From contig JAFGRB010000178.1 of assembly GCA_016935365.1 (NCBI GenBank), positions 389 through 64,388 on the forward strand: a DNA stretch of 64,000 bases. The letters run 5' to 3'. The stretch comes from Deltaproteobacteria bacterium. Its GTDB lineage: Bacteria; Myxococcota; B64-G9. Below, in pieces: positions 15,106-50,239 of the stretch; positions within the stretch are counted from its first letter, which is position 1, and each line of letters begins with the position of its first letter. The position numbers were made by a program, and so were the translations under genes. Under the pieces are notes generated by a model that had not been told where the DNA came from, searched no databases, and saw only the letters and a list, made by a program, of their open reading frames with translations.

Positions 15106-15166
15106 GCGAGTCTAGTAGAATACCGAATTTTCCGCAACTATGCTGCGGAAAAACCGACTTTTCCCG
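15106..15166. promoter_or_regulatory. Two tandem palindromes TTTTCC(C)GCA-N7-TGCGGAAAA upstream of the AAA+ ATPase gene
   Basis: 15108-15132 and 15139-15164; the second contains the perfect 8-bp-arm palindrome CCGCAGCAgTGCTGCGG; no flanking U-tract. Confidence 0.45.
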
Positions 15167-15242
15167 CAGCAGTGCTGCGGAAAATTGGGATTCCGGGATG
15201 GAACCGAAGCGCTGATAGTATTATAATACGCAAGGATGCCGG

Positions 15243-35861: not shown

Positions 35862-37235
35862 ATGAAAAGGTGTTTAATCGTCTGTATCCTGTCCGCTCTC
35901 GCGTGCGCCGCGGGCTGCAGCTCCTCATCGGCGCCCGAGTGCAGCGCAGCCTCGGACTGCACCGGCGACCCCGGCGAGGGCTGCGTCTGGCTATGCGTCG
36001 ATCACGCCTGCGAGAAGAGCTGCGATACGCACGAGTGCGAGGAAGCCGCGGACTGCACCGGCGATCCCGGGCAGGGCTGCGTCTGGCTGTGCGTCGATCA
36101 GCACTGCCAGAGGAGCTGCGGCGAGCCGGAGTGCGAGGTAGCTTCTGACTGCACCGGCGATCCAGGCGAGAGCTGCGTCTGGCTGTGCGTCGATCAGCAC
36201 TGCCAGGCGAGCTGCGGCGAGCCGGAGTGCGAGGTGGCCGAGGACTGCCAGGACGAGCCCTGGCTCGAGGACTGCATCGGTCACTTCGAGTGCATCGACG
36301 GGGAGTGCTTCGCGGTCTGCGACGACGAGTGCAGCGTGCCCGAGGACTGCGCGGGCCTCGAGTTCCCGCTGGACTGCCAGGGGCACTGGATCTGCGATCA
36401 GAACCACTGCAAGCCGGTCTGCGACCAGGGCTGTGAGGGCCCTTCGGACTGCGAGGGCCTGCCGTGGCCGGTGGGCTGCCGCGGGCACTGGGAGTGCAAC
36501 GCGGACCACGTCTGCGTGCCGGTCTGCGATCCGAGCTGCACCCACCCGCGCGACTGCTGGGGCCTGGAGTTCCCGATCGACTGCATCGGCTTCTGGGACT
36601 GCGTGGACGGTTACTGCCAGCCGTACTGCGGCGAGTGCGGCGGAGAGGGCGAGACGATCGCGCCCGGCGATCCGATCTGCTGCCCGGGGCTGGTATCCGG
36701 CATGATCGCCGAGATCGACACCACGGGCGACTGTACGCCGATACCCGGGGGCATGGTGTGCATCGACTGCCCGAGCGGCGCGTGCGGGCCCGGCGAGAAC
36801 TTCTGCAACTGCCCCGACGACTGCCCCTTCGAGCCGAACTGCGTGCCCGAGGGCGAGTGGCAATACGGGGACGGGCCGCTTTGCTGCGCGGGGCTGATCT
36901 CGAGGCCCTGGGGCGAGCCCGAGGACGACTGCACGACCAGCAACACGCTCTCGGTCTGTGTGCGCTGCCCGAACGGGGAGTGCGGCCTCGGCGAGAACGT
37001 CTGCACCTGCCCCGAGGACTGCTCGGCGACCGGCTGCACGCCCGAGGGAGAGTACACCAGCCCGGTCGAGCCGAACTGCTGCCCGGGCCTCGAGGCCATC
37101 GTGATCGCCGAGTACGAGCAGGGCGCCTGCAGCTACATCGACGGCGCGCTGGTCTGCGCCGCCTGCCCGAACGGGGAGTGCGGACTCGGCGAGAACTTCT
37201 GCAACTGCCCCGATGACTGCCCGGGCCACAACTGA
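35862..37235 (+). CDS. Cys-rich repeat lipoprotein (Myxococcus-type cysteine-rich repeats)
   Basis: Lipobox LACAAGC; 3x ~37-aa EC..A.DCTGDPG.GCVWLCVD..C..SCGEP and 3x CPNGECGLGENxCxCPxDC repeats. Confidence 0.7.
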   Translation: MKRCLIVCILSALACAAGCSSSSAPECSAASDCTGDPGEGCVWLCVDHACEKSCDTHECEEAADCTGDPGQGCVWLCVDQHCQRSCGEPECEVASDCTGDPGESCVWLCVDQHCQASCGEPECEVAEDCQDEPWLEDCIGHFECIDGECFAVCDDECSVPEDCAGLEFPLDCQGHWICDQNHCKPVCDQGCEGPSDCEGLPWPVGCRGHWECNADHVCVPVCDPSCTHPRDCWGLEFPIDCIGFWDCVDGYCQPYCGECGGEGETIAPGDPICCPGLVSGMIAEIDTTGDCTPIPGGMVCIDCPSGACGPGENFCNCPDDCPFEPNCVPEGEWQYGDGPLCCAGLISRPWGEPEDDCTTSNTLSVCVRCPNGECGLGENVCTCPEDCSATGCTPEGEYTSPVEPNCCPGLEAIVIAEYEQGACSYIDGALVCAACPNGECGLGENFCNCPDDCPGHN

Positions 37236-37240
37236 CAACA

Positions 37241-37318
37241 AGGGGGGTCAGACCCCGACACTTGACACTTGTCTCACACGAAAACTCACAAGTGTCAAGT
37301 GTCGGGGTCTGACCCCCC
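37241..37318. repeat. Long perfect palindromic element (31-bp arms, 15-nt loop) with GGGGGGTCAGAC termini
   Basis: Occupies the entire gap between the convergent stop codons of the Cys-rich gene and uppP. Confidence 0.7.
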
Positions 37319-38139
37319 TAGCCGAGCACACCGAAGCCGAGCAGGGTGGCGATGGCGCCGCCGAGCAGGAGGCGGTAGGCGATGAAGACGGCCGTGGAGC
37401 GCTTCTGGAGGAAGCGCAGCAAGAAGGCGATGGCCGCATAGCCGCTGGCGGCCGCGGCGGCCGTGCCCAGTGCGACGGCCAGCCAGGGCACGCCGGCCGG
37501 GCTCGAGCGGGCCAGGCTGCTGAGTTCGTACAGGCCGCTGGCCGCCACGGCCGGGACGCTGAGCAGGAAGCTGAAGCGGGCCGCGTCGGCGCGCTTCAGC
37601 CCCACGAAGAGCCCGGCGGTGATCGTGACTCCGGAGCGCGAGGCGCCGGGGATGAGCGCCAGCGCCTGGGCGAGGCCGATGAGCAGCCCGCCGAGCCAGC
37701 CGAGCTGCTGCATGTCGAGGCCCCGCTTGCCCCGCCACTCGGCCAGTCCGAGGAGCAGCGCCAGGCCTCCCAGGGCGGCCGAGACGACCCACAGCGAGCG
37801 CAGGCTGGTCTCGATCGCCTCCTGGAAGACAAGCCCGCAGACCCCGACCGGCACGGTACCGATGGCGATCAGCCAGGCGAGCCGGGCCTCGGTCTCGGCG
37901 AAGGGCTTCCTACGCCACAGGCAGCGGAAAAACGAGGCGGCCATGGCGACCAGGTCCCGGAAGAAGTAGACCACGACCGCCAGCAGGGTGCCGAGCTGCA
38001 CCACGGCCGAGTAGGCCGCGCCGGGGTCTGGCCAGCCCACGAGCGCGGGCACCACGCGCAGGTGGGCCGTGGACGAGATGGGCAGGTACTCGGTCAAGCC
38101 CTGGATGAGCCCCAGGATGATGGCCTGGAAGGGATCCAT
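37318..38139 (-). CDS. uppP: Undecaprenyl-diphosphate phosphatase
   Basis: BacA/UppP motifs (GLIQGLTEYLPISSTAHL, PGASRSG). Confidence 0.9.
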   Translation of the reverse strand: MDPFQAIILGLIQGLTEYLPISSTAHLRVVPALVGWPDPGAAYSAVVQLGTLLAVVVYFFRDLVAMAASFFRCLWRRKPFAETEARLAWLIAIGTVPVGVCGLVFQEAIETSLRSLWVVSAALGGLALLLGLAEWRGKRGLDMQQLGWLGGLLIGLAQALALIPGASRSGVTITAGLFVGLKRADAARFSFLLSVPAVAASGLYELSSLARSSPAGVPWLAVALGTAAAAASGYAAIAFLLRFLQKRSTAVFIAYRLLLGGAIATLLGFGVLG

Positions 38140-49287: not shown

Positions 49288-49349
49288 GGGGGTCAGACAC
49301 CTTTATTTAGCACTTGCAAGCCAAGTGCTAAGTAAAGGTGTCTGACCCC
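49288..49349. repeat. Palindromic element (28-bp arms) sharing GGGGTCAGAC termini with the 37241-37318 element
   Basis: Its right arm encodes the last codons and the stop (…GSDTFT*) of lpxL. Confidence 0.65.
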
Positions 49350-50239
49350 TCCTTCGTCTTCCAGCGGCGGTGCATCCAGATCCACTCGTCCGGGTGGGCG
49401 CGCACGAAGCGCTCGATCCTCGCGGTCAGCGCCCGGGTGTCCTCGGCCACGGCCCGTTTGAAATCCTGCTCGTCGCAGAGCGGGAAGGGCTCGATCTCGA
49501 TCACCAGCCCGCCCTCGCGCTGGCGGTGGTTGAAGCCGGTGACGACCGCGGCCCGGCACTTGCGCGCCAGGACGGCCGCGGCGGTGGGGGTGGAGGCCGG
49601 GCGGCCGAAGAAGTCGACGAAGACGCTCGGCACCCGCGTGTCCTGGTCGATGAGCAGGCCCATGACGGCCTTGTCTCGGAGCACTCGGGCCATCCGCTCG
49701 AAGATATCCGGCTCCCCGCGCCAGACGGTGTGCACCCCGCCCGAGAGCCGGAATCGATCGAGCAGGCGGGTGAAGCGCGGGTCGTAGGACTTCTGGCCGA
49801 TGGTGTGGATCGGGTAACCGCAGGCCGCCAGGCCGCGGGCCATCAGCTCCCAGTTGCCGCAGTGGCCGGTGACGAAGACCACGCCGCGGCCCTGCCCGAG
49901 CGCGGTATCGAGCACCTGGCGCGACGCGTCCGTCAGCGCGACGTAGCGGGCGAGCTCCGGGATCTTGCCCCGGGCCGCGCAGACCACCTCGGCCACGCCC
50001 TGGCCGAGGTTCTCGAAGACCCGGCGCGCCAGGTCTCGCCGGGCCTGCTCGTCGAGCGCGGGCAGGGCCAGGGCGATGTGCTCGTCGCAGCGCCGGCGCT
50101 CCGTGCGGGCGAAGCGGTATGCGATCCGGCCCAGGCGCCGCCCCCAGCGCAGCGCCCGAGGCAGGCGCAGCCAGCCCAGCAGGCCCAGCCCCAAGCGCAC
50201 GCCGGCGTAGATCAGGAAGTTCTTGATCCGCTTGCCCAT
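49328..50239 (-). CDS. Lipid A biosynthesis lauroyl/myristoyl acyltransferase (LpxL/HtrB family)
   Basis: HCGNWE acyltransferase motif and N-terminal membrane anchor. Confidence 0.8.
   Translation of the reverse strand: MGKRIKNFLIYAGVRLGLGLLGWLRLPRALRWGRRLGRIAYRFARTERRRCDEHIALALPALDEQARRDLARRVFENLGQGVAEVVCAARGKIPELARYVALTDASRQVLDTALGQGRGVVFVTGHCGNWELMARGLAACGYPIHTIGQKSYDPRFTRLLDRFRLSGGVHTVWRGEPDIFERMARVLRDKAVMGLLIDQDTRVPSVFVDFFGRPASTPTAAAVLARKCRAAVVTGFNHRQREGGLVIEIEPFPLCDEQDFKRAVAEDTRALTARIERFVRAHPDEWIWMHRRWKTKEGSDTFT

Follow-up and report, generated by a model that had tools for sequence, protein, structure and literature searches.

The present analysis suggests that two long palindromic hairpins in a genome related to the Myxococcota are probably REPIN-like, non-autonomous elements moved by a clade of RAYT transposases, and that they carry a terminal tag which differs from those already described, GTAG and CGTC. 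In a REPIN, two conserved ends in inverted orientation fold together as a single long hairpin. The hairpins lie in a 64-kb stretch, called the window below, of a metagenome-assembled genome (MAG) labelled Deltaproteobacteria. We class them as REPIN-like and GGGGTC-tagged because their anatomy and dynamics fit REPINs though the GT(A/G)G or CGTC tag fails, and since the same end motif adjoins RAYT genes in other bacteria, they represent a known kind of element rather than a new system.

Anatomy and folding of the two hairpins

The hairpins and the genes around them are as follows; the hairpin features are given without strand.

35862-37235, plus strand: Cys-rich lipoprotein ORF; stop codon 5 nt before element 1; no Pfam match
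37241-37319: element 1 (79 bp), a palindrome whose 32-nt arms pair perfectly around a loop of 15 nt
37242-37256: left end tag of element 1, GGGGGGTCAGACCCC, containing the 13-mer GGGGTCAGACCCC
37259-37270: inner box in the left arm of element 1, CACTTGACACTT, common to 33 family members
37273-37287: unpaired loop of element 1 (loops in the family are 4-28 nt, of differing sequence)
37290-37301: mirror of the inner box in the right arm of element 1, AAGTGTCAAGTG
37304-37318: right end tag of element 1, GGGGTCTGACCCCCC
37318-38139, minus strand: uppP (PF02673); the last two bases of element 1 lie within its stop codon
48996-49268, minus strand: small ORF, downstream of element 2, with lptA (PF03968) and an ABC ATPase gene next in line
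49288-49349: element 2 (62 bp), a palindrome whose 28-nt arms mismatch at one position and enclose a loop of 5 nt
49288-49301: left end tag of element 2, GGGGGTCAGACACC
49328-50239, minus strand: lpxL-like lipid A acyltransferase gene (PF03279)
49328-49348, minus strand: end of the lpxL-like gene (its final six codons, GSDTFT, and the TAG stop), contributed entirely by an arm of element 2
49337-49349: right end tag of element 2, GGTGTCTGACCCC, whose minus strand codes for G-S-D-T of the acyltransferase tail

Elements 1 and 2 rank as the two longest inverted repeats of the window, and exact GGGGTCAGAC is found at their four arm ends and nowhere else in it, which bears out the shared termini that an earlier note on this DNA had described. 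The same note had given the arms of element 2 correctly (28 nt with one mismatch, 49289-49316 and 49322-49349) and those of element 1 too short, as 31 bp; they measure 32 nt each (37241-37272 and 37288-37319) and are 100% complementary. The internal CACTTG/CAAGTG core that it had named is present in both hairpins, at 49311-49316 and 49322-49327 in element 2 and within 37259-37270 and 37290-37301 in element 1. Element 2 is a diverged member, in which the tag reads GGGGTCAGACACC and the CACTTG box occurs once; elements of a GGGGTCAGACACCGG-CACTTGACACTT type (L161, L170, and L185) also have GGGGTCAGACACC and CACTTG.

Folded as RNA, element 1 reaches -68 kcal/mol on the plus strand and -72 kcal/mol on the minus strand, and element 2 reaches -55 and -53 kcal/mol on its two strands; the corresponding z-scores range from -10.6 to -12.5, and none of 200 shuffled sequences folds equally well. 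The element interiors have a G+C content of 39-45%, against ~69% for the window. A search of Rfam returned no match at the gathering score, and the subthreshold matches were generic, miRNA-precursor-like hairpins only. Within element 2, TTAGCACT-N9-AGTGCTAA at 49307-49331 resembles the CIRCE heat-shock operator. This candidate was rejected, because its half-sites stand 2 nt nearer to each other than in CIRCE and its gene context does not fit.

Gene context and possible terminator function

As had been noticed earlier, element 1 takes up the whole gap that separates the convergent stops of the lipoprotein ORF and uppP; this gap measures 82 nt, and the element reaches two bases into the stop codon of uppP. 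The lipoprotein (457 aa) carries several internal repeat modules, such as CTGDPGxxCVWLCVD. The overlap of element 2 with the lpxL-like gene, recognized earlier as well, is equally clear, one arm coding for ...E-GSDTFT and the stop. Element 2 lies inside a same-strand gene run, since the small ORF, lptA, and the ABC ATPase gene continue downstream on the minus strand.

The proposal that such hairpins double as bidirectional terminators finds little in its favor: the minus strand of element 1, on the uppP side, has a weak T-rich tail (CCTTGTTGTC), no U-tract was found on the plus strand of element 1 or on either strand of element 2, and ordinary terminators occur elsewhere in the window. Two adjacent hairpins at 15123-15189, between two minus-strand genes, are built as A-run, CCGCAGC..GCTGCGG, and T-run, and look like ordinary bidirectional intrinsic terminators, unlike elements 1 and 2. 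On this basis, a terminator role appears possible only on the uppP strand of element 1. Precise targeting to gene ends is likewise not supported in the form suggested earlier. One family member lies in frame within a gene (see below), and both strands of element 1 contain stop codons in two of three reading frames, so that a gene entering an arm soon terminates and placement next to stop codons can arise by selection alone.

An end tag shared across bacterial phyla

The arrangement GGGGTCAGAC…GTCTGACCCC was sought as GGGGTCAGAC-N28-58-GTCTGACCCC in one genome per species and was found at at least 120 loci in many phyla, which among the matches listed include Pseudomonadota, Actinomycetota, Planctomycetota, Acidobacteriota, Bacillota, Patescibacteria, and others. 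By our own arithmetic, chance should yield ~17 matches if the four bases are equally frequent and as many as about fivefold more in DNA of 70% G+C, so the locus count by itself is not decisive. More telling is what lies outside the search pattern: among the matches listed, CCC follows the searched 10-mer in 191 of 348 occurrences, G precedes the tag at position -1 in 6% of them, and the same 837 kb of loci hold ~80 extra copies of the 10-mer. The continuation into CCC and the avoidance of G at -1 indicate that the unit is a bounded 13-mer palindrome, GGGGTC(A/T)GACCCC. This end tag, with its looser form GGGGTCAG, defines a very broad superfamily, to which elements 1 and 2 belong.

Interiors within the superfamily are lineage specific and comprise a Marinobacter type, a Massilia type, short GGGGTCAGACCC-loop-GGGTCTGACCCC hairpins, and tandem arrays. 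At L050 (2526-2593), the 11-mer GGGGTCAGACC occurs three times in tandem and then three times in inverted orientation, so the tag itself can be arrayed. Copy density in other genomes reaches 3-4 copies per 4-8 kb, compared with two copies in the 64 kb of the window, and many superfamily copies among the matches listed have an A-run on one side and a T-run on the other. A scan of viral contigs yielded 9 loci (~8 independent) with the real pattern, and two composition-matched controls gave 0 and 15 loci, the latter from 3 independent families; this comparison backs the finding weakly. Several high-G+C viral contigs (L132, L134-L136, and L138) have tagged hairpins between terminase, portal, and capsid genes, and these gene clusters look like GTA-like or prophage clusters. 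Literature searches for the repeat sequences found no bacterial description. The GGGGTCAGAC-tagged hairpins form a family of small selfish palindromic repeats that is very widespread and apparently undescribed.

A family that shares the inner box of element 1

When metagenomes were scanned with the interior of element 1 only (CACTTGACACTT-N0-30-AAGTGTCAAGTG), 42 loci of 30-71% G+C were recovered. The GGGGTCA ends, which lie outside this pattern, are present on 31 elements in those loci, or 33 with those of L086 and the window. In each member, G(3-7)TCA is followed by a variable segment of 6 or 8 nt and by CACTTGACACTT, and the mirror image of this arm lies across a loop of 4-28 nt; the inner box, with its core YTTGACA, thus lies 6-8 bp inside the tag. 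The variable segments fall into 13 types, and they pair without a mismatch in 30 of the 33 elements. Among segments of 8 nt, each of the 11 distinct types pairs over its whole length, a result matched by none of 10,000 shuffles, and each position shows two to four Watson-Crick pair types with zero mismatches. The complementarity of the stem is thus maintained by many compensatory changes.

Around 19 bases per arm are identical throughout the family, in genomes that range from 30% to 71% G+C. The low-G+C members belong to Atribacterota, since the neighboring IlvE, MurI, and dehydrogenase proteins cluster with proteins bearing Candidatus Infernicultor or Atribacteria names. TTGACA occurs in 2 of 134 superfamily elements among the matches listed, and the inner box appears to be specific to the element 1 family. 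A promoter reading of the shared TTGACA was rejected, there being no -10 element at the proper distance in element 1 or 2. At L165 (3205-3300 and 3349-3385), a family member is bordered on one side by tandem 17-21-nt units, GACCCCATGACCGGGGTCA[GC], and on the other by repeats of CCTGACCCCGTGTTT, and two copies flank a small zinc-ribbon gene (PF09723). In L170, a left arm without its partner precedes a 72-aa ORF; this lead was set aside, as the ORF has no Pfam match.

Presence and absence in relatives and close strains

The closest relatives of the source MAG are Myxococcota MAGs. In the loci of seven of them (UppP 70-79% identical), no hairpin or tag lies downstream of uppP, and at the site of element 2, two relatives with the gene order lpxL-lptC-lptA-lptB-rpoN (LpxL about 60% identical) have an unrelated spacer of ~110 nt instead. 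A comparison of lpxL C termini, which had been proposed earlier, showed that 40 homologues share ...WVWMHRRWKT, usually followed by R/Q-P and by tails of differing length; the protein of the window ends in ...WKTKEGSDTFT, and its GSDTFT comes from element 2. The alternative named in the earlier note, that of an ancient conserved terminator, is accordingly not borne out: elements 1 and 2 are not ancient conserved terminators, since related Myxococcota are without them at the orthologous uppP and lpxL loci. A short-read contig of the same organism terminates within element 1, as such contigs tend to do at repeats.

Turnover is seen in Atribacterota. Strains L160, L174, and L198-L203 are 93-98% identical around murI-ilvE-aspC, yet their ilvE-aspC spacers differ: that of L160 holds a plain AAAAAAAAGTGCCTGGCACAAAATTT hairpin, that of L174 the CACTTGACACTT element, and that of L198 a hairpin with GGGGTCAAATCTTTATTCTTGACAAATAG; a 78%-identical relative, L166, has a fourth hairpin, with GGGGTCTTCACATTTGACATATG. 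The finding of different hairpins at the same site in close strains indicates rapid turnover. Where hairpins have been swapped between close strains, the flanks align as far as GGGG and CCCC, and at the borders partial tags recur in tandem together with a few flanking bases. The plain hairpin of L160 (9580-9640) contains GTGCCTGGCAC, a small near-palindrome built like the tag.

One copy is translated. At L086 (3092-3149), the whole 58-nt element (GQTLTLDTSRSVKCQRLTP) lies in frame within a PF10131 membrane-protein gene, and homologues that are 54-61% identical are 9 residues shorter at its position. This copy is reminiscent of the Rickettsia palindromic elements (RPEs), which likewise can be translated in frame within protein-coding genes; RPEs are about 100-150 bp long and confined to Rickettsia. 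The MAG that contains L086 is labelled Rickettsiales, a label made doubtful by the 70% G+C of the contig. Both at the Atribacterota site and in L086, roughly 18-30 nt have been replaced by the element, which is not a clean insertion, and a simple cut-and-paste model fails to explain this replacement. Target-site duplications were found at no copy, including near-identical copies with different flanks.

Association of the tag with RAYT genes

RAYT genes flanked by their own REPs are a hallmark of the RAYT system (Nunvar 2010, PMC2817692). A Marinobacter locus, L089, has this arrangement: a full element lies 17 nt upstream of the ORF of a Y1/HUH transposase gene, GGGGTCCGACCCC lies 7 nt past its stop codon, and there are four elements in 4 kb. 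The protein matches PF01797 (Y1_Tnp) with 57 bits and the NCBIfam model REP_Tyr_transpos with 75.8 bits, the cut-off being 80; its UniRef cluster has one member named 'REP-associated tyrosine transposase', and the only structure solved among its relatives is that of E. coli TnpArep, 4ER8. When the full library was searched with the Marinobacter protein, 510 representatives were returned at E <= 1e-30, and the loci of three were inspected. In L210 (39% identical), GGGGTC(A/T)GACCC(C) repeats lie on both flanks; in L208/L209 (44% identical), both flanks carry hairpins of the type GGGTCAGACC-AAA-GGTCTGACCCC; and in L204-L207 (55% identical), a variant tag, GGGGTCGGGTAC...GTACCCGACCCC, lies upstream. 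The association thus covers four RAYT loci, with the tag itself beside a RAYT gene in three unrelated contigs, and the 13-mer GGGGTCAGACCCC of the left tag of element 1 also flanks the RAYT genes of L089 and L210.

Copies of the inner-box family were not found beside a RAYT gene in the fetched loci, and no RAYT gene was seen in the 64-kb window. The arms of the Marinobacter copies read GGGGTCAGACCCC-AA-GACATTTG and those of element 1 GGGGTCAGACCCC-GACACTTG; the link between the inner-box family and RAYTs is suggested by the shared tag and by the GACAYTTG that follows it in the Marinobacter copies. When the ORFs of ~170 repeat-bearing loci were clustered, no transposase neighbor or integrase recurred, and the recurring families were all generic (ABC ATPases, short-chain dehydrogenases, sensor kinases, and GTA/prophage genes). 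The lack of a recurring neighbor family is expected if the enzyme is encoded just once per genome. Relatives of the Marinobacter RAYT were not found in the viral contigs. A Myxococcota relative of the source organism (L126/L127, 13439-14509) has a Y1_Tnp gene of 320-356 aa a few kilobases from uppP, with several copies in the MAG (a 15-member cluster). It was rejected as the mobilizer, as the GGGGTC tag is absent nearby and the protein is only distantly related to the Marinobacter RAYT.

The earlier view of a repeated, REP-like, non-autonomous family is thereby upheld: the elements recur at unrelated sites in many genomes and differ between close strains, their end motif flanks RAYT genes, and relatives are without hairpins at orthologous sites.

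Alternative explanations

It is quite unlikely, in our judgment, that the hairpins are immobile RNA structures that evolved locally under selection, as terminators or stabilizers of mRNA 3' ends, and came to share a favorable stem-closing sequence by chance. Their gene-end position and very stable folds would suit such a role, as would the A-run and T-run flanks of many superfamily copies, the T-rich tail on the minus strand of element 1, and the terminator-like hairpin that L160 holds where sister strains have tagged elements. However, a 12-nt inner box and a 7-13-nt tag remain constant from 30% to 71% G+C, for which convergence is implausible; the same sequence occurs at unrelated loci and within a coding region and is absent from orthologous sites in relatives; and the association of the tag with RAYT genes and the lack of a U-tract on element 2 and on the plus strand of element 1 point the same way. 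A very unlikely reading is that they are classical MITEs, that is, deletion derivatives of DDE-transposase insertion sequences (e.g., the Tn3 family) that are moved in trans. Like MITEs, they are short, non-coding, and bounded by inverted repeats, and the Tn3 inverted repeat starts with GGGGTCTGAC and includes the 12 nt ACGAAAACTCAC found in the loop of element 1 (37278-37289 of the window). Against this stand the absence of target-site duplications, a transposase gene enclosed by an arm pair in 0 of ~170 loci with no recurrent transposase neighbor, and a BLAST search of plasmids and phages in which six family variants had no match. The fetched loci were also searched for arms in inverted orientation at 0.25-6 kb from each other, as an autonomous element would have them, and only separate hairpin copies were returned. 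When element 1 was examined as a Tn3-derived TIME, the resemblance amounted to the first 6-10 nt and one 12-mer; there is no 38-bp repeat ending in TAAG and no 5-bp duplication, the likeness is limited to a single copy, and the spacing to the 12-mer is 24 nt as against 10 nt in Tn3. Because the spacing differs and the loops of other members are unrelated, the likeness to Tn3 is probably a coincidence. The MITE label of the earlier note is therefore dropped, target-site duplications being absent and no parent insertion sequence having been found.

Integron biology offers another precedent, in which the hairpins would be folded, attC-like sites of a tyrosine recombinase whose two monomers would bind the outer and inner boxes. 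The succession of conserved base box, 6-8-bp spacer, conserved inner box, and variable loop does parallel attC, and a location where ORFs end, together with replacement exactly from tag to tag in close strains, would fit as well. The RYYYAAC/GTTRRRY boxes are absent, however, the ends being GGGGTCAGAC/GTCTGACCCC; the stems are perfectly paired and have no extrahelical bases; the neighbors are housekeeping genes and not cassettes; no integrase recurs; and the tag flanks HUH transposase genes, which together leave this reading highly improbable. It would be more surprising still if the 13-mer were an operator of the GntR/FadR type (general form t-GT-N3-AC-a), an idea to which we give almost no credence. 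Although GGTCAGACC fits GT-N3-AC, and papers on the LldR and PdhR operators contain GGTCAGAC/GTCTGACC strings, the tag occurs in many copies per locus, at gene 3' ends rather than promoters, within long hairpins and beside transposase genes, and in phyla with very different regulators.

Discussion

A GGGGTC-tagged, REPIN-like identity accommodates most of these properties. Elements 1 and 2 and their relatives share with REPINs a symmetrical palindrome made of two conserved regions plus a spacer or loop that varies, a hairpin maintained through compensatory changes, extragenic dispersal, no target duplication, conserved-end remnants after turnover, and an end motif that flanks HUH/Y1 (RAYT) genes. 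REPINs have been described as palindromic doublets with compensatory changes whose excision leaves a few bases of the conserved ends (Bertels and Rainey 2011, PMC3116915), and the partial tags at the Atribacterota borders recall these excision remnants. Several differences are evident. The arms are perfect and longer than those of described REPs; the tag and the 12-nt inner box of element 1 cross phyla, unlike the usual REP family, which is confined to one species or genus; and one tagged copy (L086) sits within a gene. In addition, the GT(A/G)G head is missing from elements 1 and 2, which are preceded by ACAA (ACAA|GGGGGG) and AGAA (AGAA|GGGGG), respectively. GTAG stands directly before the tag in 2 of the 33 inner-box family members and is not among the 20 commonest 4-mers preceding 348 superfamily ends among the matches listed.

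A precedent for a short terminal tag that unites differing palindromic families across taxa is provided by the GTAG and CGTC superfamilies of REPs (Di Nocera 2013, PMC3733652). The tag described here, GGGGTC(A/T)GAC(CCC), differs in being itself palindromic and present at both ends, and neither GGGGTC nor TCAGAC was found in the main text of PMC3733652. The likeness to MITEs, such as Correia elements and Tn3-derived TIMEs, ends at their being short, non-coding, and bounded by inverted repeats, given that here there is no target-site duplication or parent insertion sequence and the whole element is one hairpin. Intrinsic (rho-independent) terminators likewise are stable, G+C-closed hairpins at gene 3' ends, and some superfamily copies have flanking A- and T-runs; in contrast to terminators, the stems here are 28-32 bp long with an A+T-richer interior, and a U-tract is missing save for the weak tail of element 1.

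How such elements might move can be outlined. A RAYT of this clade, encoded as a single copy in the host, would recognize the tag on a hairpin in single-stranded DNA and would cut and rejoin the hairpin, so that an element could be moved or replaced without target duplication. Copies would then persist where the harm is small, namely between genes, in dispensable 3' tails such as that of the lpxL-like gene, or in an in-frame protein loop. A resident stable hairpin would probably affect the 3' ends or the stability of neighboring transcripts as a side effect. A bolder proposal, which we put forward tentatively and regard as possible but doubtful, is that the elements with tag and YTTGACA box make up a single REPIN lineage, which would move from phylum to phylum (Atribacterota, Myxococcota, and others) together with its RAYT, home to hairpins or tags already present at gene ends, and replace the resident hairpin exactly between GGGG and CCCC. 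If this is true, it would amount to a site-directed 'hairpin cassette exchange', and to a third tag superfamily besides GTAG and CGTC, the first of them with nucleotide-level conservation across phyla.

In practical terms, tagged hairpins break short-read assemblies and add junk residues to annotated proteins, as in the C-terminal GSDTFT of the lpxL-like protein and the internal GQTLTLDT... of the L086 protein. The replacement of hairpins between strains also provides a natural system in which to approach how RAYTs move REPINs. More broadly, REPs and REPINs are usually viewed as lineage-specific partners of a co-evolving RAYT, which recognizes them by a GTAG or CGTC tag. The elements described here depart from that view in having a different, palindromic tag, in the occurrence of this tag in many phyla, and in the ~19 bases per arm that are constant within one family. 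These departures point to one of two causes, namely, horizontal spread of a RAYT together with its REPIN or an unusual degree of constraint on the site that is recognized.
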